A stretch of 64,000 bases of DNA from an archaeon (GCA_029258825.1 JAPDKA010000003.1:66065-130064); one strand, 5' to 3'; positions 9,818 through 41,316 are shown, numbered from the stretch's first letter. The notes: generated by a model not told the origin, from the letters alone. Translations and numbers: made by a program.

Positions 9818-9833
9818 GATTGTAAACCTAATA

Positions 9834-10196
9834 TCAAGCTAGTTTTTTAATTTTATTTATTGTTACTAAAATTGCTCCCTTACAAGGCTCAGATTCGTTT
9901 TCAGGAATTCGTTTTACTATTTCATACCACTTTCCTTCGGTAATATACTCAGCTGTTCCTCTTAATTCATAACCCACACAGTTCTTTTTTCAATCTTTAT
10001 TCCAAACAGTTAATGCAACATTTGGATTTTGTCGAATATTTTTCGTTGTTTCAACCATATAATTTTGATTTTTAGAAACAACTTTTACAAATGCCACAGC
10101 AATACAGTGAGGGTTTCCATTTTCATCCACAGTTGCAAACGTAGCAATAAAAAATCTTGGATGGGTGAGCGATTGAATATATGCATTTAATAAAGT
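9834..10196 (-). pseudogene. pyridoxamine 5'-phosphate oxidase-like (FMN-binding split-barrel) gene remnant
   Basis: Minus-strand translation gives ...RFFIATFATVDENGNPHCIAVAFVKVVSKNQNYMVETTKNIRQNPNVALTVWNKD*KKNCVGYELRGTAEYITEGKWYEIVKR..., which is PNPOx-like. It has no ATG/GTG/TTG start after the upstream TAG. There is an in-frame TGA at 9990-9992. Confidence 0.55.
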
Positions 10197-10263
10197 CTAA
10201 TGAAATGACGATGAGGAAAATTGAATCTGACTTAGTATCTCTGTAAAACATATTTGAAACCTA

Positions 10264-11412
10264 ATGGTTGAAAAAGGGCGACGAGAGCGAAAGATTTTAA
10301 TAAATAAAGCTTATTTACTATTTATGAGGAAAGTAAGAAAAGTAATTATTGATTGGCCTAAAGGAGAGGTTCGTTATGTGACAGAGAATGGTATGACAAG
10401 AATATCTTATAAGCATAATTATATAGAATTTCTCCCACATAACTACCGAGATGGTAAAGACACAGGTCCACCTATATATGTAAATGCTATTCTGGAAGAT
10501 TATAATGATGAGATATCTGAATATTTAGAAGATTTAGAGAAAGAAGGGAAGATTGATATTGAAAAAGAGTGGTTGGTTTATGAAATAAAAAAAGGGGAAA
10601 CTATTCGTTTTTCTTTTGAGAGATTAGAGATACATCCACTAGAAGGAGGTATAAAAGATTTTATCCAAAAATATACAGGGAGGTCTTCACCGTGGTTGAT
10701 GTACGAAAAAGAAATAGATCTGCTAGCAAAAATTCCTCCTTCGATTATGGAAATTGCTGTAAAAAAGGCTATAGATTTATATGAAGCAGATGAGTGGGAT
10801 ACTTTTAATAAGATGTTATATGCGTACCATGAATCTCAACCAGGTATAGGACCTCTTTCTAAAGAGGAAGAAGAACTACTTGAGAAACATGGAATAAAAG
10901 AGATTGTAGAGAAATTATTTGAACTAATACCTTGGAGCGCGTGCATTGTATGTGGAGAAATTTTATGGGAACTTAAGTATGGAAACAAAAATCGAATAAA
11001 AAGTCCGAAAGATGTCATAGATATAGCCTTGAAAGGTGAAGCTTCAAACTTATATTGCATTATTGGGCCTTGTTTAGGACTTGCCCGATACGAGAGATAC
11101 AAAGAATTAGATCGCCATGTTATTGTAATAGACGTAAGGAAAGATCCTACAGAGAAATACGGGTGGGAAGGGATACACCCTTTAGATCTACAAGAATTGG
11201 GTATCACAAGACTGTTAATTTATAAAAAATTAATGGAACTTGGAGAGGAAGAAATTTATGAAAAAGCAAAACGTATTTTTAGACCAGGAGCTTTACTTTA
11301 TTTTTTAATTGAATATATAAAGTGGAAAGAAAGAGAAAAGAAAGAAAAGAAAGCTCTTCCCCCTTCAAATTTAAAAAAGTTATTGAATTTTTTAGACAAG
11401 GACAGTAATTAA
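10264..11412 (+). CDS. hypothetical protein, 382 aa, Glu/Lys-rich; composition atypical for this window
   Basis: Long ORF with no motif I recognise. Its codon and amino-acid usage (many GGA/GGG, AGA/AGG, Glu-rich) differs from the flanking core genes. Confidence 0.5.
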   Translation: MVEKGRRERKILINKAYLLFMRKVRKVIIDWPKGEVRYVTENGMTRISYKHNYIEFLPHNYRDGKDTGPPIYVNAILEDYNDEISEYLEDLEKEGKIDIEKEWLVYEIKKGETIRFSFERLEIHPLEGGIKDFIQKYTGRSSPWLMYEKEIDLLAKIPPSIMEIAVKKAIDLYEADEWDTFNKMLYAYHESQPGIGPLSKEEEELLEKHGIKEIVEKLFELIPWSACIVCGEILWELKYGNKNRIKSPKDVIDIALKGEASNLYCIIGPCLGLARYERYKELDRHVIVIDVRKDPTEKYGWEGIHPLDLQELGITRLLIYKKLMELGEEEIYEKAKRIFRPGALLYFLIEYIKWKEREKKEKKALPPSNLKKLLNFLDKDSN

Positions 11413-11565
11413 ATTTACATGTTCGAGAAATTTTGTAGGGTACCGGATTATAGATTGGAGCTGAATGATTCTTCACCCAATAACTGTATCTCTCTTGAGC
11501 GAAGCGAGAGCCAGAATGACTTAGGAGTAGAAGTATCTTTAAGAATGCAAACATTGTTTAGCAAG

Positions 11566-11925
11566 TTACATCCTACCAAACCTTCGTCTTGCGCGTCTGC
11601 CCAATGGTTTGCCAATTGCTTTTTGCATTATCTTTATCCATTCAGGCTGACTTATGCGTATCGCTTTACCATTAACCAAAGCGTCAACAATTTTCTTTCT
11701 TGCTTCTATCAATAATCTATGCATTGTTGGTTGGGACACAGCCATCCTACTTGCAGCTTCTTCCTGGGTTAAACCAAGATAATCAACAAGTCTTAATGCT
11801 TCTAGTTCATCCATACCTAAAGCTACTTCACTAAGTTGTGCAAGAGCAACGCCAGCAGGCTTAAAATAAGCGACAGTTGGTTGAAACATAACAAACCTGC
11901 ATCGTCGCGGCCTAGCCATTTTCAA
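11566..11925 (-). CDS. DUF134 (UPF0251) family predicted DNA-binding protein
   Basis: N-terminus MARPRRCRFVMFQPTVAYFKPAGV and ...LGLTQEEAASRMAVSQPTMHRLLIEARKKIVDAL match the DUF134 / sigma70-region-4-like HTH family. A TATA-like atttttaaat lies about 27 bp upstream on the minus strand. Confidence 0.7.
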   Translation of the reverse strand: MKMARPRRCRFVMFQPTVAYFKPAGVALAQLSEVALGMDELEALRLVDYLGLTQEEAASRMAVSQPTMHRLLIEARKKIVDALVNGKAIRISQPEWIKIMQKAIGKPLGRRARRRFGRM

Positions 11926-12075: not shown

Positions 12076-12291
12076 ATGGAAAACGAAAAAACAGAAAATA
12101 GGCAAGATAACATTTCTAAAGAAGAAGAAATAGCATTTCATAAAGGAGCGTTAACAGTATTGGTAAAAGAAAGGCAAGAACTAGCAAGATTGCTTACAAT
12201 TGTACAGCAATTAATAACAGCACATGCAAAAAGGCTTGAACAGCTTGGAGTTAAAATAGAAAAAACTGAACAGGAAGAAAAGAAAGAATAA
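12076..12291 (+). CDS. small hypothetical coiled-coil protein (71 aa)
   Basis: ORF between the two minus-strand DUF genes with a helical, Glu/Lys-rich sequence. No clear promoter was identified. It may be spurious. Confidence 0.25.
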   Translation: MENEKTENRQDNISKEEEIAFHKGALTVLVKERQELARLLTIVQQLITAHAKRLEQLGVKIEKTEQEEKKE

Positions 12292-12412: not shown

Positions 12413-12736
12413 TTACTTGATTTTCTTTAGTTGCTCTTCAATTTGTTTTAGCTCTTGTTTTAATGCTTCTATTTCTGCATTTATTTCAGCTTTTTCTTGC
12501 TCTAACAATTCTCTCTGCTCTTCTTTAGTTAATGCTGGTGCTGCTAATGCTCTTGCTTGTGCTTGCTGTAATTGTTGTAATGCTGCTAATCTCCAGTAAC
12601 CAAGGCCTCTGCCGAACCTGCCCATTCCAAAGCGTCCAAATCCAAACCATCCAAAGCCTCTGCCAAATCCCAGTCGTCTTAAACAAACCCAATTGCCATT
12701 GGCCCACCAAGGGCCAGTTCCATCTCCCCAAGGCAT
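12413..12736 (-). CDS. DUF5320 family protein
   Basis: N-terminal MPWGDGTGPWW plus a Gly/Arg/Phe-rich GFGRGFGWFGFGRFGMGRFGRG repeat and a C-terminal coiled coil make the characteristic DUF5320 architecture. Confidence 0.7.
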   Translation of the reverse strand: MPWGDGTGPWWANGNWVCLRRLGFGRGFGWFGFGRFGMGRFGRGLGYWRLAALQQLQQAQARALAAPALTKEEQRELLEQEKAEINAEIEALKQELKQIEEQLKKIK

Positions 12737-12815
12737 TTTACATTTGGTTCTTATTTATTTAGTTTAGTTTTGATTTGATTTTAATTCTGAATTTGTACGC
12801 ATTTACCATCAATAG

Positions 12816-12895
12816 TTTTGAATATATATTCAAAACTCTATTATGAATATATATTCATAATTTAAAAACCTTTCGGTTATGAATATATATTCATA
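12816..12895. promoter_or_regulatory. three copies of the perfect palindrome TGAATATATATTCA bracketing a BRE/TATA element; putative operator array
   Basis: Palindromes at 12819-12832, 12844-12857 and 12880-12893. On the minus strand, CCGAAAGG + TTTTTAAATT (about 12855-12876) lies between copies 3 and 2, roughly 120-130 bp upstream of the DUF5320 ATG. Confidence 0.55.
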
Positions 12896-12938
12896 ACTCA
12901 ATCTTAGAAGCATTCAAGCTAGCAAAGAAAAAAATAAA

Positions 12939-13664
12939 CTAATGCAAGAACAGCTTAAAGCATAAAAGCAGAGCAATACCAAATAAAAACCACAAAAAGC
13001 TTAACCATGTTCTTATGCCTTCTTGCTTATGCAATTCAGGTATTAAATCACTGCTTGCAATATATAAGAAACCGCCAGCTGAGAATGCAAGAAGCACATA
13101 AATAAAAGTAGTAGTATGTACAAAAAACACAATTAAAGCACCAACAATACAAGTTAACTGAACAAGAAAATTGGCTAACAACGCTTTATGTTTTTTCCAA
13201 CCCCCATAAACAAGCACGGCAAAATCGCCCAGCTCTTGGGGTATCTCGTGAAGTATAATAAGAAGTGTGGTAATAAAACCGAAATGTAACGAAACTAAAA
13301 AGCTTGCACCAATGACAACACCATCAATAAAATTATGAACAGCGTCTCCTAACAGCGACAGATACGTAAAAGCGTGAATTTTACATTTAACATTATGGCA
13401 GTGCCTCCATCTTAAAATTTTTTCTAAGAAAAAGAAAAAGATAAAACCAAGCATCAACAAATAAAAAGCATTGCTATTAAGTTGCTCCATAGATTCTGCA
13501 AGCAAATGAAAAAAAGCACCAGCAAGTAACGCGCCTGATGCAAATGCGATCATTGAAAATATAAACTTGTCAAAGACATTGCGCCTTAACAACAATGAAA
13601 AAGCTCCAATTAAAGCGACCAAACTATTAAGGATTGTTGCAGCCAGTACATAAAGCAACAGCAT
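12939..13664 (-). CDS. ZIP family metal (Zn/Fe) transporter
   Basis: 8-TM protein with the HNFIDGVVIG and HEIPQELGDFAVL motifs characteristic of ZIP/ZupT transporters. Confidence 0.8.
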   Translation of the reverse strand: MLLLYVLAATILNSLVALIGAFSLLLRRNVFDKFIFSMIAFASGALLAGAFFHLLAESMEQLNSNAFYLLMLGFIFFFFLEKILRWRHCHNVKCKIHAFTYLSLLGDAVHNFIDGVVIGASFLVSLHFGFITTLLIILHEIPQELGDFAVLVYGGWKKHKALLANFLVQLTCIVGALIVFFVHTTTFIYVLLAFSAGGFLYIASSDLIPELHKQEGIRTWLSFLWFLFGIALLLCFKLFLH

Positions 13665-20623: not shown

Positions 20624-21094
20624 TTAAACTAAATCGACCATATGATCATATTTAATTTCTTCGATAATGGAAGAAACTTCATAATCTTTTATAATTTTGG
20701 AAAATTTTCTTCTTATTTCCGTTAAAATCTCATCAAAATGTTTTAGGTCTTTTGCAACAATATTGATAGTAAAATCCCATTTTCCAGTTGTTTTAGCTAC
20801 ATAAACTACATTTGAATGTGATTTTAAGAAATTTATAAAAGATTTTTCACAAGTTTCACTCATATTTTGCAAAACAAAATTTACGAATGCGTAAACAGGG
20901 AAACCCAAAGCTACAGGGTCCAAAACAGTATGAAAAAATTTTATTATTCCAAATTTTTTCATCCTTTTTATTCTATAAACAACACTATCTCTTTGGATTC
21001 CTGTTTTTCTTTCTATTTCTGCTACACTTGCTCTAGCATTTTTATCAAGTATTTTTAATATTTTTTTATCTTTCAAATCGAGTTTTATTTTCAT
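20624..21094 (-). CDS. Lrp/AsnC family transcriptional regulator
   Basis: N-terminal HTH (LDKKILKILDKNARASVAEIERKTGIQRDSVVYRIKRM) plus a C-terminal RAM/ACT-like domain. Confidence 0.8.
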   Translation of the reverse strand: MKIKLDLKDKKILKILDKNARASVAEIERKTGIQRDSVVYRIKRMKKFGIIKFFHTVLDPVALGFPVYAFVNFVLQNMSETCEKSFINFLKSHSNVVYVAKTTGKWDFTINIVAKDLKHFDEILTEIRRKFSKIIKDYEVSSIIEEIKYDHMVDLV

Positions 21095-24459: not shown

Positions 24460-25521
24460 TTATTTTTCTGTTTTTTGCACGTCAATATTAAGCCAAGGAT
24501 AAAACATAAACCTCCAGTCTTGCCGCATTAAACAAATAGTATCTGCAAAACACTTTATTGCTTTCACATATGCTTTTTGCTTGTTGTAAGCATACAGTGC
24601 TGAATCAACAGAGTGATTAAAGTTATAAAGCGAAAGATAGCAAGCAACCATTCCAATAGCGTCATGCAAGCTAAAAATATCAAGACCATCGCTATTAACA
24701 TCGCAAAGATCAAGTAAACCTGAATTATAAAGCATTAAAATCGTGCTCGGCAGAAACTGAGCAGGGGTTATTGCACCAGCAAAACTGCAGTTGCAAAAAG
24801 GATTGTTAATTATGCCTTGTTCAAACAAGTTAAACAATGCATCCAGTTGTTTTATTGCAAATTGCTGCTTTCCAGCAAGATATAGCGTGACTAATGTATT
24901 AAACAATTTTTGCTTTCCGCAGTAATTGCCAAAGCATGATTCTAAAGCGAGAATTGCTGTTATAATCTCGATAGGTTTATGTTGCATATCTAATGAAAAT
25001 AAATTCACAGCATTAATTAAATCTTTCTCATAAGTGTTGATAAAATTTAATGCTTTGTTAAACATTTTTGGCGTATAAAAACCGAGCTCTGGTTTTAAGT
25101 AATAATCTTCGCTAATTTTATCGATTTTGTTGTAATGCTTCAATGTTTCTCTTAATTTTGCCACATCATAAATTTGAAAGTCATCGCTTGCAAACAATTT
25201 TTCTGCTAACCCTCCATAACGCGATGTCAAATAAAGCTTTAACTTAGCAAGATCATCAAGCTGTTTTCTTTGATGTTTACAGCCTTGAGCAACTTGTTCT
25301 AGTTTACGCTGGGTAATTTGAGCAGTTTGTTCAGTTACTTGTTGCTCAATCTGACATTGAGCTCGACTTGCTCTGCATTGGTTTTCATAATGGCAAGGAA
25401 AAAGAAAAGGCAAGATAAGTGCAAAATTTAAAGCATTAAACCGTGTCATGCTGTAATTAAAGCAAAGAAATATAAAAAGGTTATTGAAAAATAAAGGAGT
25501 TAACAAATTATAGACATTCAC
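24460..25521 (-). CDS. family-3 (MltB/SLT_2-like) lytic transglycosylase-like protein with an N-terminal hydrophobic segment
   Basis: ILALESCFGNYCG matches the catalytic-Glu ES motif. AGAITPAQFLPSTILMLYNSG matches the GA.GpaQFmPsT motif of MltB-type lytic transglycosylases. The N-terminal hydrophobic segment could be a signal peptide or anchor. Confidence 0.6.
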   Translation of the reverse strand: MNVYNLLTPLFFNNLFIFLCFNYSMTRFNALNFALILPFLFPCHYENQCRASRAQCQIEQQVTEQTAQITQRKLEQVAQGCKHQRKQLDDLAKLKLYLTSRYGGLAEKLFASDDFQIYDVAKLRETLKHYNKIDKISEDYYLKPELGFYTPKMFNKALNFINTYEKDLINAVNLFSLDMQHKPIEIITAILALESCFGNYCGKQKLFNTLVTLYLAGKQQFAIKQLDALFNLFEQGIINNPFCNCSFAGAITPAQFLPSTILMLYNSGLLDLCDVNSDGLDIFSLHDAIGMVACYLSLYNFNHSVDSALYAYNKQKAYVKAIKCFADTICLMRQDWRFMFYPWLNIDVQKTEK

Positions 25522-25803
25522 AAAGGTTTTTTATTCTATTTTTTTGTAAAAGTAAACCAGGCTTGCTGAAACACTTTTACAGATAAAAGAAAAATTTAAA
25601 AACATTATCGTCGAGCCGACCCTAGAAGATTTCAGAAGCTTTAAACCGAAAGATTTAAGTTTTTAAAAATATATGTTACATACATACTATACTCATTAAA
25701 AAGAAGAATTAAATATGCTATTCAAAGATAAACATATGCTTCATTCAATTGTATTTCATCGAGCTAATATTAAATCTAATATTAAATTAAATTTATCAGA
25801 TTA

Positions 25804-26151
25804 ATGCATAAGATGAAAATAGCTGTAAGTTCGATAGGAAAAAATCTTGAAAGCCAAATTAGTAATGTATTCGGGAGATGCCCGTATTTTATTATTGCTG
25901 AAATTGAAAACAAAAGAATTGTAAAAACTAAAACAATTAAAAACACAAGTGCTAATCAAATGGGCGGAGCAGGAATCTCTGCTGCTCAAATAATTGCAGA
26001 AGAAGGTGTAAAAGTTGTAATAACAGGAAATATTGGACCAAAGGCTTCTTCTGTTTTGAAACAATTTGATATTGAAGTTTATAGAGGAAGCGGGTTAGTA
26101 AAAGAGGTATTACAAAAATTTATTGAAGGAAAACTTGAAAGAATTCAATAA
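25804..26151 (+). CDS. NifX/NifB-like (dinitrogenase FeMo-cofactor biosynthesis domain, PF02579-like) protein
   Basis: MKIAVSS...FGRCPYFIIAEIEN...GAGISAAQIIAEEGVKVVITGNIGPKASSVL is the typical NifX_NifB fold pattern. The true start may be the third Met of the ORF (MKIAVSS), 9 nt into it at about 25813. Confidence 0.7.
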   Translation: MHKMKIAVSSIGKNLESQISNVFGRCPYFIIAEIENKRIVKTKTIKNTSANQMGGAGISAAQIIAEEGVKVVITGNIGPKASSVLKQFDIEVYRGSGLVKEVLQKFIEGKLERIQ

Positions 26152-26177
26152 AAGATAATAAAAATTTAAAATAAAAA

Positions 26178-26585
26178 ATGGAAGTAAAGATAGATAAAAA
26201 TAAGTGTATTGGTTGTGGAATCTGTGTTAACATATGTCCAGAAGGTATAGAAATAAGAAACGGAAAGGCTTCTATAAAAGATGAAAATGTGGATTGTTTA
26301 ATACAAGCTGCGAATTCATGCCCTAAACATGCTATTATTTTAGAAGCGAATAAACAACAATCAGAAAGTTTAGAAATCCCGCAGGGTTTTACAAGAATGG
26401 GAGTGGGCCGCAGAATTCATAGTAGAGGGCAAGGAAGGAGAAGAAGAATGGGTGGTTTTGCAGCTGGCCCTGAAGGTTATTGTGTATGCACAAAATGTGG
26501 ATATAAAATTTTACATCAGCGAGGAATTCCCTGCCACCAGCAGAAATGCCCTAAGTGCGGCTCTCCAATGATAAGAGCTAATTAA
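26178..26585 (+). CDS. 4Fe-4S ferredoxin domain fused to a DUF5320-like C-terminal domain
   Basis: N-terminal CIGCGICVNICP ... C..NSCP (a 2x[4Fe-4S] ferredoxin). C-terminal GRRIHSRGQGRRRRMGG ... CVCTKCGYKILHQRGIPCHQQKCPKCGSPM matches the Cys-rich DUF5320 variant. Confidence 0.65.
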   Translation: MEVKIDKNKCIGCGICVNICPEGIEIRNGKASIKDENVDCLIQAANSCPKHAIILEANKQQSESLEIPQGFTRMGVGRRIHSRGQGRRRRMGGFAAGPEGYCVCTKCGYKILHQRGIPCHQQKCPKCGSPMIRAN

Positions 26586-26589
26586 AATA

Positions 26590-26952
26590 TTGAAAATAAT
26601 AAAAGTGAAAATAGCAATTCCCACAGAAAATAAAAAAGGATTAAACGATAAAGTAACAGAACATTTTGGTAGATGCAATACTTTTACTTTTCTTAACGAG
26701 AAAGGAGAACTCATTGAAATAATTGATAATAAAAGTCAGCTAGGCTTATTGCCTCCACAACTTTTGAAAAAGCATGGAGCAAACGTTTTGTTATGCAAAG
26801 CTCTCGGTTTAAAAGCTTTTGATTTATGCAAACAACTTGGCATAGAGGTCTATATTTCAAAAGCAAAAACAGTTAAAGAAATTTTTGAAGAATGGAAAAA
26901 TAAAAAAATCAAAAAAGCTAATTTTGAAAATATTTGCAAACATGGAAAATGA
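26590..26952 (+). CDS. NifX/NifB-like (dinitrogenase FeMo-cofactor biosynthesis domain) protein, second copy
   Basis: KIAIPTENKKGLNDKVTEHFGRCNTFTF...LLKKHGANVLLCKALGLKAF. It overlaps the next gene by ATGA. Confidence 0.7.
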   Translation: MKIIKVKIAIPTENKKGLNDKVTEHFGRCNTFTFLNEKGELIEIIDNKSQLGLLPPQLLKKHGANVLLCKALGLKAFDLCKQLGIEVYISKAKTVKEIFEEWKNKKIKKANFENICKHGK

Positions 26953-27806
26953 AAATTACTTTTATGATTGTTTTTATCGTTATTTTTGTAATTATTTTAA
27001 TATTATTAGCATTAATTTATAAATTTATATTCAATATAAATACAATGAAGGAGAATAAAGAAAATATAACAAAAGATTTAGAAAAAAATTTTCTTTCTAA
27101 TATAACAATTTCTAACATAACAATTATTGATGTTTATGATAATGTTGAATTTAATCCAAAATTCAAAACAGGTTTCGGTTTTGCGTGTGTTGTAAAATTA
27201 AAGAATAATACAATTCTTTTTGATACCGGAAGCGATTCAAAAATACTATTAACAAATTTAGAAATAGCAGGAATCAAACCAGAGGAAATAGGGATTATTG
27301 TTTTATCACACATTCATGGAGACCATACTGGCGGTCTTTTAGGGTTTTTGAGGAGAAATTCCAATGTTAAGGTTTACGTTCCTGTTTCTTTTCCATCTTC
27401 ATTTAAAAAGGAAATAAAAGCAACAGGAGCAAAAGTAGTAAATGTTACTAATTTTATGAAAATAACAGAAGGAATTTATTCGACAGGAGAGCTTGGAACA
27501 TGGATTAAAGAACAATCTTTAGTAATTAATTCTGATAAAGGATTAATTATTATAACTGGTTGCGCCCATCCTGGTATTGTTAACATAGTAAAGAAAGTAA
27601 AGGAATTAACAAATAAAAATATTTATATTGTTATGGGAGGATTTCATCATCCTCCAATTGAAATAGTAAAAGAATTTAAAAAACTTGATGTGAAAAAAGT
27701 AGCACCGAGCCATTGCACAGGAGATGAAGCAATAAATGCTTTCAAAAAAGAATATCAAGAAGATTTTATAAAATCTGGGGTTGGAAAGATTATTGTAATA
27801 AAATAA
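26949..27806 (+). CDS. MBL-fold metallo-hydrolase (COG1237-like) with an N-terminal TM helix
   Basis: LSHIHGDHTGGL (HxHxDH) and a downstream GGFHH motif. The start is chosen at the ATG that overlaps the upstream TGA as ATGA. Confidence 0.7.
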   Translation: MKITFMIVFIVIFVIILILLALIYKFIFNINTMKENKENITKDLEKNFLSNITISNITIIDVYDNVEFNPKFKTGFGFACVVKLKNNTILFDTGSDSKILLTNLEIAGIKPEEIGIIVLSHIHGDHTGGLLGFLRRNSNVKVYVPVSFPSSFKKEIKATGAKVVNVTNFMKITEGIYSTGELGTWIKEQSLVINSDKGLIIITGCAHPGIVNIVKKVKELTNKNIYIVMGGFHHPPIEIVKEFKKLDVKKVAPSHCTGDEAINAFKKEYQEDFIKSGVGKIIVIK

Positions 27807-27835
27807 AACAAAAAATAAAAATCGACAGCAATTAA

Positions 27836-28672
27836 ATGCTAAAGGAAGTGCTTTTTAAAACACTTTTTGAAACACTGAAAATAGTAGGAATAGTAACAAT
27901 TTTAATGATCTTTATTGAGTATTTACAAATAAAGTTCAAGAAAAAAATTGAAAAGTACATCACAAAAAACAAGAAAAATCAAATAATAGGTTCTTCTTTG
28001 CTTGGCGCAATTCCTGGTTGCATAGATGCGTTTTTTATTGTTTCTTTATATTCTCACGGCTTGGTAGGCTTTGGTGCTTTAACAGCAGTTATGCTCTCAA
28101 CAGCAGGTGATGAAGCTTTCGTCATGCTTGCCATGGTTCCAAAGACCGCTTTTTTAATTTTTGCATCATGTGTCATTCTAGGAATTCTTGGTGGTTTTCT
28201 TGCTGATGCTATAGTAAAGAAAACAAAATTAAAAAGGTCGAAACCTTGTATCATAAAAATTCATAAAAAAGAAAAACTTGGACATTTTTTTAAAGAACAT
28301 GTATACAACCATATTATCAAAAAGCATGCATTAAAACTTTTCTTATGGATTTTTTTTACTTTGTTAATAGTTGAATTGTTAATGGAGAAGTTTGATCTCG
28401 CTAGTTTTCTGCCAAAAAATGTTTTGTTAATGATTTTAATTGCTGCATTGGTTGGGATAATTCCTGAATCAGGACCTCATCTGATATTTCTTACTTTGTT
28501 TGCTAAAGGCCTAATTCCTTTTTCAGTTTTGTTGACTTCTTCATTGGTGCAAGACGGTCATGGCCTACTTCCTTTACTTTCCTATTCTGTTAAGGATGCA
28601 ATTAAAGTTAAAATTTTTAATGTTGTTTTTGGACTCATTGTTGGAATAGCTTTATTTTTAGTTGGAATTTAA
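27836..28672 (+). CDS. putative permease (two-repeat polytopic membrane protein), function unknown
   Basis: About 8 TM segments with GAIPGC and IPESGPH motifs in the two halves. It co-operonic with the ATPases. The family assignment is uncertain. Confidence 0.45.
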   Translation: MLKEVLFKTLFETLKIVGIVTILMIFIEYLQIKFKKKIEKYITKNKKNQIIGSSLLGAIPGCIDAFFIVSLYSHGLVGFGALTAVMLSTAGDEAFVMLAMVPKTAFLIFASCVILGILGGFLADAIVKKTKLKRSKPCIIKIHKKEKLGHFFKEHVYNHIIKKHALKLFLWIFFTLLIVELLMEKFDLASFLPKNVLLMILIAALVGIIPESGPHLIFLTLFAKGLIPFSVLLTSSLVQDGHGLLPLLSYSVKDAIKVKIFNVVFGLIVGIALFLVGI

Positions 28673-28673
28673 A

Positions 28674-29504
28674 ATGAGAATAGCAATTACTGGCGGAAAA
28701 GGAGGAACAGGAAAATCAACAATAGCAACAGCTTTGGCTTACAAATTAGCAAAAACAAAAAAAGTCTTACTTCTTGATTTAGATGTTGATTGCCCAAACG
28801 ATGATTTGATTCTTGGAATTAAAACAAAAAAAGTAAAAGATGTTGAAAGCATGATTCCAAAATTTGATTATAAAAAATGTAAAAAATGTGGTTTGTGTTC
28901 TAAAATCTGTAAAGAACATGCAATCGTTTTTGTTAAAGGAAATTTTCCCTTTGTAATTCCTGAGCAATGCATTGGTTGCAAAGCTTGTAAGATTGTATGC
29001 CCTTTCCATGCTATAACAGAAGAAAAACAAAAAATAGGTGAAATTTTTATCGGCAAAAAAGGAAACCTCACTTTAATAGGCGGAAAAATGAAACCTGTGA
29101 TTGAAGAATCAAGTTTGGTTGTAAATGCGGTAAAAAAATTTTCACAGGAATATGAGAAAAAGTATGATTATGTAATTGTTGATACTGCGGCAGGAACACA
29201 TTGTCCTGTTATTTCTGCCTTACTTAATTGTGATATCGCTTTTGCTGTAACAGAGCCAACACCTCTTGGCCAGCATGATTTAGAATTAATTTTAAAATTA
29301 ACAAAAAAATTGAAAATTAAATCTTATGTTATTTTAAACAGATCTGACATTGCTAATAAAAAAATGATTGAGAACATTGCAAGAAAATACAAAACAAAAA
29401 TTATTGCAGAAATCCCTTACAGTAAGGAAATTGAAAAAAATTATTCAGTTGGAAAACCAATTGAGCATGAAGCTATAGATCAGATTATAAACATGGTAAA
29501 ATGA
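28674..29504 (+). CDS. MinD/ParA-superfamily P-loop ATPase with an inserted 4Fe-4S ferredoxin domain (COG1149-like)
   Basis: Walker A ITGGKGGTGKST, two CxxCxxCxxxCP ferredoxin motifs (CKKCGLCSKICKEHA; CIGCKACKIVCP), then the ParA core (VIVDTAAGTHCP). Confidence 0.8.
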   Translation: MRIAITGGKGGTGKSTIATALAYKLAKTKKVLLLDLDVDCPNDDLILGIKTKKVKDVESMIPKFDYKKCKKCGLCSKICKEHAIVFVKGNFPFVIPEQCIGCKACKIVCPFHAITEEKQKIGEIFIGKKGNLTLIGGKMKPVIEESSLVVNAVKKFSQEYEKKYDYVIVDTAAGTHCPVISALLNCDIAFAVTEPTPLGQHDLELILKLTKKLKIKSYVILNRSDIANKKMIENIARKYKTKIIAEIPYSKEIEKNYSVGKPIEHEAIDQIINMVK

Positions 29505-30412
29505 AAACAATAACAATTTTATCTGGTAAAGGAGGTGTTGGAAAAAGTTCCATTACTGCTTCTTTAGCTGTGTTGTTAGCAAGAAAATATAAAATTGTTA
29601 CAGCCGATTGTGATGTTGATACACCAAATCTTGGTTTGTTGTTTGGCATTAAAAATTTTAAAAATTTGAAGAAAGTATCAACAAACTATAAAGCATTTGT
29701 AAATAAAAAGGTTAAAAAATGCCCTAATGTAAAAAAATTATCTGATGTATGCACTTTTTTTGCCATTTCTTGGAATGAAAAAATGAATATACCAATAATA
29801 AACAGATTTTTGTGCGAAGGTTGTGGTGCGTGTAAATTATTATGTCCGGAAGGAATAGAATTGAAGAGAGTGAAAAATGCTGTTATTGGCCAAACAAAAA
29901 CAAAATACGGTTTTTATATTGTTTTTGGCCAGCTAAAAGTTGGGGAATCAGGAAGTGGGAACATTGTTGAAATTATTAAAGAAAGAACAAGAAAAATCGC
30001 TGAAAATGTTAAAGCAGATTTCATCATTATTGATTCGTCTGCAGGAATTGGTTGTCCTGTTATTGCCTCAATCAGAGATTCTGATTTTGTTATCGCAGTT
30101 ACAGAACCAACTCCTTCTGCTTTACGTGACTTAAAGAGAGCACTAAAGGTTGTTGAACATTTCAAAATACCTTACGGGGTTATTATTAATAAATATGATC
30201 TTAACAAAAAATTCACAAAAAAAATAGAAAATTTTGCAAATAACCATGGAATTCCAATATTTGGAAAATTACCTTATGACAAATCATTTGTTGAATCAAT
30301 AGTGAATCTTATGCCAGTTGTTGTTTATGATAAAAGATTTGAAAGATTATTTTTAAGTATTTTAAATAATGTCAAAAATAATCTCGATAAAATTTACAAT
30401 AAAAATTTATGA
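29501..30412 (+). CDS. MinD/ParA-superfamily P-loop ATPase with an inserted 4Fe-4S ferredoxin domain (COG1149-like), paralog 2
   Basis: Walker A LSGKGGVGKSS, CEGCGACKLLCP, and IIIDSSAGIGCPV. The start overlaps the upstream stop as ATGA. Confidence 0.8.
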   Translation: MKTITILSGKGGVGKSSITASLAVLLARKYKIVTADCDVDTPNLGLLFGIKNFKNLKKVSTNYKAFVNKKVKKCPNVKKLSDVCTFFAISWNEKMNIPIINRFLCEGCGACKLLCPEGIELKRVKNAVIGQTKTKYGFYIVFGQLKVGESGSGNIVEIIKERTRKIAENVKADFIIIDSSAGIGCPVIASIRDSDFVIAVTEPTPSALRDLKRALKVVEHFKIPYGVIINKYDLNKKFTKKIENFANNHGIPIFGKLPYDKSFVESIVNLMPVVVYDKRFERLFLSILNNVKNNLDKIYNKNL

Positions 30413-32482: not shown

Positions 32483-33202
32483 TTATTTTTTGATTTCCTT
32501 GAGCACGATTTCAGCTTTACCTTCAAGCACTTTTTTTGCACCATCTTTAGTAATAACCACAACATCGAAACCGCTTCCTGTAGGTGTATCTCTCTGCATT
32601 GCAGCATTTAAAGCATCAACAACAAGTTTTACGCCCTGCTCAACATTGATATCTTGCTTGTATTTGCTTTCAAGCACGCCGTAAGCCATAACCATACCAC
32701 TACCTACGGCAACATAATCATCGTGCAATGCTACAGATCCATCTGGAGATACTTCATAAAGCCAAAAACCTTTGCTGTCTTTACCGCCAACAAGAAATGC
32801 TGCGATACTCATTAAAGGTGAAAAATTTCTTATGCTTTGATAGGCTAATGATGCCAACAGATTAGCAGCTTGTTTTACTGTTGGTTCTATTTTCGAGCGC
32901 AATTGTTTTAACTTTAACTCAGCTTTTGTAATTTTCAAAAACAGTTGAATATCTGAAACATTGCCTGCTGTCGCAACAACAACATTCGGCATTAAAAAAA
33001 CTACCTTCTGCATCTTCTTGTGGGCAATAAACGTGCCCCCAAGAGTAGCACGCCTATCTGCTCCTATCACAATTCCATCTTTACAGACAACACCAACAAC
33101 AGTGGTTCCAGTTTTCATCACTTGATCTTTTAGCTCCATTTTAGAAACTAAAGCACTAAGCAATCTTGCATTTATAAAGGTTTCGATAGACAATAACAGC
33201 AT
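32483..33202 (-). CDS. psmB: proteasome subunit beta
   Basis: A propeptide is followed by the mature N-terminus TTVVGVVCKDGIVIGADRRAT... (Ntn-hydrolase Thr1). The start may be at the internal Met (MELKD, 33139). Confidence 0.9.
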   Translation of the reverse strand: MLLLSIETFINARLLSALVSKMELKDQVMKTGTTVVGVVCKDGIVIGADRRATLGGTFIAHKKMQKVVFLMPNVVVATAGNVSDIQLFLKITKAELKLKQLRSKIEPTVKQAANLLASLAYQSIRNFSPLMSIAAFLVGGKDSKGFWLYEVSPDGSVALHDDYVAVGSGMVMAYGVLESKYKQDINVEQGVKLVVDALNAAMQRDTPTGSGFDVVVITKDGAKKVLEGKAEIVLKEIKK

Positions 33203-40518: not shown

Positions 40519-41316
40519 ATGAAAAAAACAAGCACAGTGTTTGATGAAAACCTAATTAATAAGGTTCGTGCCCAGTTTGGCTTGAATGTTTATGAAACTA
40601 AAGTGTGGCTTTCATTACTTGCTAAAGGACAAGCAACAATAGGTGAAATAGCCGAAATAAGCGGCGTGCCTAGAAGCAGAATATATGATGTTCTTGAAAG
40701 TTTGGAAAAAGAAGGATTTGTTGTTGCTCATCTAGGAAAGCCTATGAAGTACATGGCAATCAAGCCAGAATTGGTTATAGAAAGGTTAAAAACAAAAGTA
40801 CTAAAAAAAGCTGAAGAAAAGGCAAAAATATTAAACAAGGTTAAAGAAACAGCAGAATATAAACAACTTGAATTGTTACATAAACAAGGAATAAAACCAG
40901 TACAACCTGAAGAGATTGCTGTTTCTATTAAAGGAAGGCTTAATATTTATACTCAACTTAAACAAATTATGGGCAATGCTAAAAAGGAAGTGGTGCTTGT
41001 AACAAACATAAATGCATTAAAAAGAAAGGCAAGGCACTTAAAGCAGGTGCTGCCTAAACTAAAAAAACAAAAAGTATCAATCGTACTCGCTGCAAGTGGT
41101 GAGCCAGAAGAAAAAACAAATATTTCTGAACAACTCGGTGTAAAGGTAAGAAAAATAAACCTCGATGCGAGATTTTGTGTTGTAGATGGTAAAGAAGCCT
41201 TAATAATAACAACACCGTTTTCAAAGCAAAACGAAGACATTGCAATACATATAAAAAGCGAATTCGTAGCTAGAGCATTACTTAATTTATTTAAAAATAC
41301 ACTAAAAAACGAATAA
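40519..41316 (+). CDS. TrmB family transcriptional regulator
   Basis: N-terminal wHTH (YETKVWLSLLAKGQATIGEIAEISGVPRSRIYDVLESLEKEGFVV) plus a C-terminal TrmB-like domain. Confidence 0.8.
   Translation: MKKTSTVFDENLINKVRAQFGLNVYETKVWLSLLAKGQATIGEIAEISGVPRSRIYDVLESLEKEGFVVAHLGKPMKYMAIKPELVIERLKTKVLKKAEEKAKILNKVKETAEYKQLELLHKQGIKPVQPEEIAVSIKGRLNIYTQLKQIMGNAKKEVVLVTNINALKRKARHLKQVLPKLKKQKVSIVLAASGEPEEKTNISEQLGVKVRKINLDARFCVVDGKEALIITTPFSKQNEDIAIHIKSEFVARALLNLFKNTLKNE

Follow-up and report, generated by a model that had tools for sequence, protein, structure and literature searches.

What are three copies of one palindrome doing between a metal transporter gene and a small gene of the DUF5320 family? 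The question is raised by a stretch of 64,000 nucleotides from the genome of an AT-rich archaeon (GCA_029258825.1 JAPDKA010000003.1:66065-130064, here called the window and numbered from its first letter). On its minus strand the genes recognised by Pfam run Hsp20, ZIP, then the palindromes, DUF5320 and DUF134. The palindromes are probably operators of the DUF134 (UPF0251/COG1342) protein, whose gene lies ~0.9 kb away, and would form a regulated promoter of the DUF5320 gene, a reading drawn from comparison of sequences within the window and across many genomes.

Three exact copies of the 14-mer TGAATATATATTCA are found at 12819-12832, 12844-12857 and 12880-12893, the coordinates given in a first-pass annotation of this DNA that described them as 14-bp palindromes. 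The exact 14-mers stand, but the palindromes are really 22-24 bp long with a 20-bp core:

12814-12837: proposed operator copy 1, a 24-bp palindrome (AGTTTTGAATAT/ATATTCAAAACT) with the 20-bp core TTTTGAATATATATTCAAAA at 12816-12835
12840-12861: proposed operator copy 2, a 22-bp palindrome (ATTATGAATAT/ATATTCATAAT) with the 20-bp core TTATGAATATATATTCATAA at 12841-12860
12876-12897: proposed operator copy 3, a 22-bp palindrome (GTTATGAATAT/ATATTCATAAC) with its 20-bp core at 12877-12896

Extended flanks had been thought to be shared by copies 1 and 2. It is instead copies 2 and 3 that are identical over the 20-mer TTATGAATATATATTCATAA, and copy 1 has flanks of its own, its differences from this consensus being confined to the W flank positions. 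From start to start, the sites are spaced 25 and 36 bp.

The three palindromes are far beyond chance in the window, which has a base composition of 33% GC. From base composition we estimate that the exact 14-mer should occur ~0.004 times in 64 kb, and with up to two mismatches there are five matches in the window against 0.91 expected, a count that none of 100 dinucleotide-preserving shuffles reaches. With a position weight matrix (PWM) the three sites score 23.4-26.5 bits (26.5 bits for copy 3); the runner-up elsewhere in the window scores 15.2 bits, and the maximum in shuffled sequence is 16.1 bits. A relaxed pattern, TGAATANNTATTCA with up to one mismatch, finds no further copy in the 64-kb window. 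The two-mismatch matches at 24994 and 27020 were rejected as sites, as they are inside genes and have PWM scores in the shuffle range. The statement that the motif occurs nowhere else in the 64 kb is thus borne out by the relaxed-pattern and PWM scans, which find no other credible site, and the shuffles argue against a string that is frequent at random positions.

The sites are also conserved. In the orthologous DUF5320 locus of a sister species (L003), whose DUF5320 is 80% identical to that of the window, all three are present in the promoter with cores and spacing unchanged. Between the two species the 20-bp cores are identical at 60 of 60 positions and the remaining spacer at 108 of 134 (Fisher p = 4.6e-5); outside the cores the spacer differs at 19% of positions. 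In L003 only decayed fragments of a ZIP gene are left at 780-1434, between Hsp20 and the palindromes, and gene prediction makes no call in that interval; the proposed operators and DUF5320 are intact. The persistence of the sites beside a ZIP pseudogene shows that they are independent of ZIP.

Which genes accompany the site in other organisms? The exact 20-mer site TTWTGAATATATATTCAWAA was searched in one genome per species, for 185,579 species, and found in at least 120 loci; genes in these loci were identified with tblastn and by simple motifs, DUF5320 being recognised also by an N-terminal D-G-T-G-P motif. Among the 120 loci listed, DUF134 begins no more than 600 bp downstream of the site in 73, often as near as ~10-12 bp to the site centre, and DUF134 or DUF5320 begins within 450 bp in 96 (73 of 87 in archaea, 23 of 33 in bacteria). 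A NifX-like or ferredoxin gene lies within 450 bp in seven further loci. The archaeal carriers among the matches listed are Methanobacteriaceae, Methanosarcinales, Thermoplasmata, Asgard groups and DPANN groups, and the bacterial ones are Patescibacteria of the candidate phyla radiation (CPR), Babeliales, gammaproteobacterial metagenome-assembled genomes (MAGs), Syntrophorhabdus and a deltaproteobacterium. In many loci the site is followed first by DUF5320, and the usual order in close relatives is site-DUF5320-(weaker site)-DUF134-(NifX, CbiA-Fer4, ferredoxin, ZIP). Most of the other listed loci fall into three groups: bacterial genomes without a module gene in the fetched block, which are probably chance matches; sites at the edge of the fetched block; and Methanobacteriota (Methanobrevibacter and relatives) in which a small Cys-rich zinc-ribbon protein follows the site. 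As an example of the last kind, a separate small Cys-rich protein is encoded by the first gene after the site in L056, L061, L120 and L088 (Methanobacteriota, mostly Methanobrevibacter). In 2.9 million viral contigs there are four site matches, none with genes of the DUF134/DUF5320 module nearby, and these are chance matches. In bacteria the cassette site-DUF5320-DUF134(-ZIP) is found in L013, L014, L021, L034, L036, L044, L057, L078, L079, L084, L123 and L126, with a 20-mer identical to that of DPANN. The bacteria that share this 20-mer are CPR/Patescibacteria, Babeliales and small gammaproteobacterial MAGs, a distribution which suggests that the cassette may have been transferred between domains among small-genome organisms.

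The test was also made from gene to site. A protein pattern was the sole criterion for picking 80 DUF134 loci out of metagenomes, and 77 of these had upstream sequence long enough to be scored. Within 600 bp upstream of DUF134, 30 of the 77 have the exact 14-mer and 50 have a site with at most two mismatches, compared with 1 of 71 for downstream sequence of equal length and 1 of 77 for shuffled upstream sequence. Two loci that were found via DUF5320 homology, independently of the motif, have sites upstream of DUF134 as well, one with a single mismatch in L004, and one with one mismatch and another with two in L006. Variation among the sites is mostly at the central two bases (TGAATA-NN-TATTCA), and the half-site TGAATA is invariant. 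The flanks, which were outside the selection, are conserved as TTA...TAA, and the real unit is therefore the 20-bp palindrome of copies 2 and 3. The sites of the window fit this DUF134-linked class in their consensus (TTATGAATATATATTCATAA), in their position on a core promoter and in having a DUF134 gene in the same genome. In both test directions, and across two domains, the 20-bp palindrome is tied to DUF134/DUF5320 genes.

Where, then, do the sites stand relative to the promoter? On the minus strand, running from 12876 to 12861 between copies 3 and 2, there is a TFB recognition element (BRE) joined to a TATA box, CCGAAAGG-TTTTTAAA. The first-pass annotation had placed such a unit here, 120-130 bp before the DUF5320 ATG, and the distance is confirmed as 124 nt, measured from the low-coordinate end of the TATA box (12861) to the first base of the start codon (12736). 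The elements are as follows:

12869-12876, minus strand: BRE-like element CCGAAAGG
12861-12868, minus strand: TATA box TTTTTAAA, also conserved in L003
12836-12838, minus strand: predicted transcription start site (TSS), ~24-25 nt past the TATA box, placed by the TATA-ATG distance of other promoters
12413-12736, minus strand: DUF5320 gene, 107 amino acids (aa), Pfam PF17253, E 7.5e-10

The pattern CGAAANNTTTWWW has nine occurrences in the window against 1.9 expected, and eight of the nine are on the correct strand and followed within ~60 nt by a start codon, either annotated or re-inferred, by distances that we read from the coordinates of the open reading frames (ORFs). Several are at leaderless distance from the start codon. 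Because the pattern recurs before genes of the window, CCGAAAGG-TTTTTAAA can be read as the BRE/TATA signature of this organism. One BRE/TATA match, at 33173-33185 (minus strand), falls within the 5' end of an annotated proteasome-subunit ORF (32483-33202), and the true start of that ORF may be further downstream. At leaderless promoters, in the window and also in other DUF134 loci, the TATA box is 24-26 nt from the ATG; by this measure the predicted DUF5320 leader is ~100 nt long. Copy 3 shares one base with the BRE and covers ~-39 to -60 of the predicted TSS, copy 2 spans the interval from the TATA box to the predicted TSS, with its 14-bp core beginning 3 nt past the TATA box, and copy 1 lies over ~+1 to +24 of the predicted transcript. 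Since the sites abut the BRE, fill the interval between TATA box and start, and cover the start itself, their occupancy should block TFB/TBP and RNA polymerase.

Similar arrangements are found elsewhere. The usual archaeal layout is TTTATATA, 5-7 nt, the palindrome, 3-5 nt and ATG, with the site filling the gap between the TATA box and a leaderless start. Pairs of sites 34-38 bp apart around a CGAAA/TATA unit occur in L139, L179, L076 and L006 as well as in the window, and L017, L141, L169 and L173 have adjacent pairs at a spacing of 23-25 bp. In the bacterial locus L202 a site is followed by TTGACA and then by a second site over the -10 region. Of the site clusters, 226 are single, 19 double and 1 triple, and besides the window a triple is found only in the sister species. 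The window promoter combines the flanking-pair and the adjacent-pair designs. Taken with the two-way association with DUF134 and DUF5320 and the conservation in L003, the recurring site-BRE/TATA-site design supports the earlier proposal of operators of a dimeric regulator that bracket the BRE and TATA box. In Methanobrevibacter (L020, L026, L040, L066 and L101) there are two overlapping or adjacent sites 17 bp apart, such as TTATGAATATATATTCATAATAAATATATATTCATAAT, and these pairs lie ~60-90 bp upstream of a long-form DUF134 with a Shine-Dalgarno-like GGAGAG.

The genes on either side of the promoter set limits on what the sites can control:

12939-13664, minus strand: ZIP metal transporter gene, Pfam PF02535
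12924-12938, minus strand: T-run TTTATTTTTTTCTTT, directly after the ZIP stop codon (TAG) and upstream of the palindromes
12076-12291, plus strand: 71-aa gene, opposite in strand to DUF5320 and DUF134 and between them, called in L001, L002 and L003
11943-11950, minus strand: TATA box of DUF134 itself, TTTTTAAA, at -31 to -24 of its ATG
11566-11919, minus strand: DUF134/UPF0251 gene, 117 aa from the ATG at 11919, Pfam PF02001, 98.1 bits (cut-off 27)

With an opposite-strand gene between them and a TATA box of its own before DUF134, DUF5320 and DUF134 are separate transcription units here. Relaxed-pattern and PWM scans of the window find no operator at the promoter of DUF134. The palindromes had been assigned to the promoter of the DUF5320/DUF134 genes, and this holds for DUF5320 but not for DUF134. 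The 71-aa gene is probably real, because it is 80% identical to its counterpart in L003; it is coiled-coil-like and has no Pfam or NCBIfam match. Archaeal transcription terminates at oligo-T tracts, and the T-run after the ZIP gene is likely its terminator. Because ZIP is upstream of the sites, they cannot control it from here, and ZIP is probably a functionally linked neighbour. It adjoins DUF134/DUF5320 also in L006, L021, L063, L067, L069, L096 and L100, and in several loci of DPANN, as in some of bacteria (gammaproteobacterial MAGs), a ZIP gene is next to the cassette or within it. Further away, on the plus strand at 25804-30412, there is an ORP-like module with genes for a NifX-like protein, a ferredoxin, a second NifX-like protein, a metallo-beta-lactamase, an ArsP_2 permease and two CbiA/MinD ATPases with 4Fe-4S domains. 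Its NifX-like and CbiA-Fer4 proteins match NCBIfam MrpORP. In contrast to many other genomes, the same two scans find no DUF134-type site before this module, including its promoter region at 25522-25803, and a promoter-like string, CCGAAAGATTTAAG, is seen at ~25637.

The DUF134 protein itself has the features of a DNA-binding protein. In Pfam searches the window protein has helix-turn-helix (HTH) matches of the Sigma70_r4/r4_2 kind. Against the NCBIfam equivalog PRK04217 it scores 76.6 (cut-off 115), which makes it a member of the family and not that equivalog. Alignments of DUF134 have a near-invariant recognition helix M-x-[IV]-SQPTFHR, an N-terminal arm M-x-RPR-x-x-R and a YFKP-x-G motif, and the M-x-RPR arm, YFKP and the SQPTFHR helix are all present in the window protein. 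In an AlphaFold2 model (predicted local distance difference test score 83.7) the HTH superposes on region 4 of extracytoplasmic function (ECF) sigma factors and on the DNA-binding domain of Bacillus subtilis DeoR, its best structural matches, with root-mean-square deviations of 0.5-0.9 Å over 40-48 residues (7bhy, 2h27 and 3vfz). Foldseek gives an HTH match only (E ≥ 0.05, template modelling score ~0.4); a PDB sequence search finds no relative, and the fold search no solved structure of the whole fold. Besides the HTH, DUF134 has an N-terminal arm and a small beta-sheet; it lacks sigma region 2 and goes with a two-fold symmetric site, and is therefore not a sigma factor. The combination of an HTH with a neighbouring RPR arm is reminiscent of arms that lie in the minor groove, like GRPR in Hin, and by this analogy the arm could read the A/T centre or the flanks of the site.

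The family is large, with 1,324 cluster representatives at E ≤ 1e-10, and its proteins are named in databases only as 'DUF134 domain-containing' or 'predicted DNA-binding protein (UPF0251)'; the closest named relatives of the window protein are from Woesearchaeota MAGs. In one protein (P0013) DUF134 is fused to the DUF5320 N-terminal motif MPGGDGTGP, a Gly/Arg-rich stretch and a Cys-rich ribbon, and other long forms (P0015 and P0017; L033 and L107) have zinc-ribbon-like C-termini with four Cys. These Cys-rich extensions are candidates for a sensing part. A search of non-subscription literature found no described function, target site or regulon for DUF134/UPF0251 (COG1342), nothing on the function of DUF5320, and the site sequence only in primer-like matches; UPF0251 has incidental mention only in the literature searched. 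AmzR was considered as a related regulator and rejected, as it belongs to an unrelated PAS-GAF family.

We infer that DUF134 binds the sites and that its effect on DUF5320 is repression. In the proposed mechanism a DUF134 dimer would bind each 20-bp site (consensus TTATGAATATATATTCATAA), the sigma-70-region-4-like HTH reading the TGAATA half-sites with the helix SQPTFHR and the conserved N-terminal RPR-x-x-R arm perhaps entering the A/T minor groove. With copies 3 and 2 occupied, TFB/TBP would be excluded, and with copies 2 and 1 occupied, RNA polymerase would be excluded and DUF5320 would be off. A signal would then release DUF134 from the sites. That signal might be Fe-S, metal or redox status, perceived via DUF5320 or via the fused Cys-rich domain of long-form relatives; this is the most speculative part of the proposal, and it is plausible because the regulon content is of the ORP type and ZIP importers stand beside the cassette.

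Several points weigh against this account. The case for DUF134 as the binder is built on co-localisation and on its being the sole DNA-binding domain consistently present, and about one-third of the protein-selected DUF134 loci have no good site within 600 bp. DUF134 of the window, unlike most of its relatives, has no operator in its own promoter, and the ORP-like NifX/CbiA module (25.8-30.4 kb) has no site either, so that the local regulon is a single gene. In the alignments the DUF134 core has no conserved cysteine for sensing. The predicted ~100-nt leader, which depends on an inferred TSS only, is much longer than at other promoters of the window. Finally, centre spacings of 25 and 36 bp put the sites on different helix faces and do not suggest simple cooperative face-to-face binding.

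How do other explanations fare against operators of DUF134? One is that the palindromes are bound by some other regulator (TrmB, Lrp/AsnC or an unidentified factor) and that DUF134 is merely a regulated neighbour. The window does encode a TrmB (40519-41316) and an AsnC-type protein (20624-21094), and its DUF134 gene is not itself preceded by a site. However, of the DNA-binding genes DUF134 alone accompanies the site through ~200 loci of two domains, and CPR and deltaproteobacterial loci also have the site beside DUF134. A tblastn search near sites with the TrmB and Lrp of the window gave one TrmB match and no Lrp match, and the near-invariant operator is paralleled by the near-invariant recognition helix of DUF134. 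Another regulator is for these reasons improbable, and of the three candidates named in the first-pass annotation DUF134 is retained, as it travels with the site, and TrmB and Lrp, which are not co-localised with it elsewhere, are not. It is unlikely, too, that DUF134 acts as an activator or dual regulator, with copy 3 recruiting TFB/TBP and copies 2 and 1 modulating the outcome. In favour of this, known archaeal activators bind where copy 3 lies, immediately before the BRE, and site-BRE/TATA-site pairs recur in other loci. Against it, the first BRE base is part of copy 3, and the commonest layout, a single site between TATA box and start codon or over a bacterial -10 region, is the position of a repressor.

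A role in RNA is very unlikely, be it as terminator or 3' untranslated hairpins of ZIP or as hairpins in the 5' leader of DUF5320. Perfect palindromes do fold as RNA hairpins, copy 1 is at the 5' end of the predicted transcript, and CCGAAAGG followed by TTTTT resembles a small hairpin with a T-run. L003 reads TCGAAAAG in place of CCGAAAGG, so that the pairing is lost, which argues against a structured RNA. A terminator scan had no match at the locus, nor was there any Rfam match, and the sites persist where ZIP is a pseudogene. Most archaeal sites, moreover, lie between the TATA box and a leaderless ATG and are hence untranscribed. The palindromes were also considered as a hairpin-type terminator of ZIP in particular and rejected, given the scan result, the pairing that is not kept in L003 and the separate T-run right after the ZIP stop codon. 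As to a functionless product of chance in AT-rich or TA-repeat sequence, or the remnant of a small repeat element, the low GC content of the window and the ATATATAT within the core would fit. This explanation is effectively refuted by the shuffles and the uniqueness of the motif in the window, by cores that are perfectly kept in L003 while the flanks diverge, and by the recurrence of the site beside the same gene families in distant phyla.

Some observations concern other parts of the window, which also encodes L7Ae, S28e, L24e, TFIIE-alpha, Nre, EF-2 and the proteasome. Between SecY and DUF134 there is a stretch of 1,745 bp (9818-11562) that is absent from the otherwise 99.9%-identical contig L001, which has 19 bp there instead, and Logan contigs of SRR22064148 break exactly at both of its edges. 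The stretch has its own promoter, CGAAAGATTTTAA (10288-10300), which makes ATG 10324 the likely true start of its ORF (362 aa). None of Pfam, NCBIfam and PHROG has a match to this ORF, and neither terminal inverted repeats nor a target duplication were seen for the stretch; it may be an insertion that varies among strains, or a mobile gene. Inside it, on the minus strand at 9834-10130, two adjacent ORFs (47 and 46 aa) are split by one stop codon, and the pair looks like a disrupted gene.

Is there a known system that this one resembles? The genes linked to the site are the same ORP-type set (NifX-like/ORP proteins, MinD/CbiA 4Fe-4S ATPases and ferredoxin) as in the orp operons of Desulfovibrio vulgaris Hildenborough. 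The orp system of Desulfovibrio has a dedicated regulator, OrpR, and responds to redox potential (PMC8359166, PMC3897727, PMC6345978), and it is thought to be of archaeal origin (PMC8359166). Restricted to deltaproteobacteria, OrpR belongs to the sigma54 enhancer-binding proteins and contains an Fe-S PAS domain (PMC8359166). DUF134 is not mentioned in any of PMC8359166, PMC3897727 and PMC6345978. In contrast to OrpR, the candidate here is a small sigma-region-4-like HTH protein that would act on the core promoter and is present in archaea. The gene lists of the window contain no sigma54 enhancer-binding protein, no search for sigma54 promoters having been made, and to our knowledge archaea are without sigma54.

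The classical archaeal repressors MDR1, LrpA, Phr and TrmB bind between the TATA box and the start site. The present system is like theirs in having a palindromic operator on or just past the BRE and TATA box and in that the regulator's own gene is usually a target. It is unlike them in protein family (DtxR, Lrp, winged HTH and TrmB families there, DUF134 here), in that the DUF134-linked operator is near-invariant across two domains, and in having three sites at this locus where most loci have one. Palindromic operators of HTH regulators on core promoters are commonplace; the novelty lies in the assignment to an orphan family and in the near-invariance of the site across two domains. SmtB/ArsR proteins have metal-responsive 12-2-12 operators that contain TGAA...TTCA. 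Those operators and the sites described here are alike in being A/T-rich inverted repeats with outer TGAA/TTCA beside a metal transporter gene, but the present site tracks DUF134, not ArsR, in other genomes. The gene lists have no ArsR/SmtB-type gene near the sites, and the only HTH_5 signal of the window is a faint one inside TrmB.

A further comparison is with IssA of Pyrococcus furiosus, a thioferrate Fe-S store in which a NifX-like domain (IPR003731) is joined to a cationic Gly/Arg/aromatic tail with a single Cys (PMC5524996). The DUF134-linked module has NifX-like proteins that are tail-less. The middle region of DUF5320, GPWWANGNWVCLRRLGFGRGFGWFGFGRFGMGRFGRGLGYWR, is cationic and rich in Gly, Arg, Trp and Phe, with one Cys, in the window and in homologs (P0002-P0007), and it has the same chemical character as the IssA tail, a likeness of composition only. 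As a tentative extension, DUF134 and DUF5320 might together be a cross-domain switch with a near-invariant operator, which would govern ORP/IssA-like proteins that handle Fe-S clusters and, in reduced genomes, a ZIP importer, with DUF5320 as a stand-alone IssA-tail-like binder of Fe-S or thioferrate that reports Fe-S or metal status to DUF134. The Gly/Arg/aromatic region of DUF5320, with its single Cys and a coiled coil after it, would suit such a role. Part of DUF5320 is fused to DUF134 in some proteins. Such a switch would span methanogens, Asgard archaea, DPANN, CPR bacteria and deltaproteobacteria.

The near-identity of the site from Asgard to CPR is unusual, and points either to a very strong constraint or to repeated exchange of the cassette between organisms with small genomes. 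DUF134/UPF0251 is a widespread 'predicted DNA-binding protein' of anaerobes, which on this account gains a testable function, an operator, a promoter logic and a proposed core regulon consisting of DUF5320, DUF134 itself, NifX/ORP-like proteins, Fe-S ATPases, ferredoxin and ZIP. This would name a regulator for the orp/IssA-type Fe-S modules of archaea. If the tentative idea of a cross-domain switch is true, DUF134 would fill the role of orp regulator that is held by OrpR only in deltaproteobacteria.

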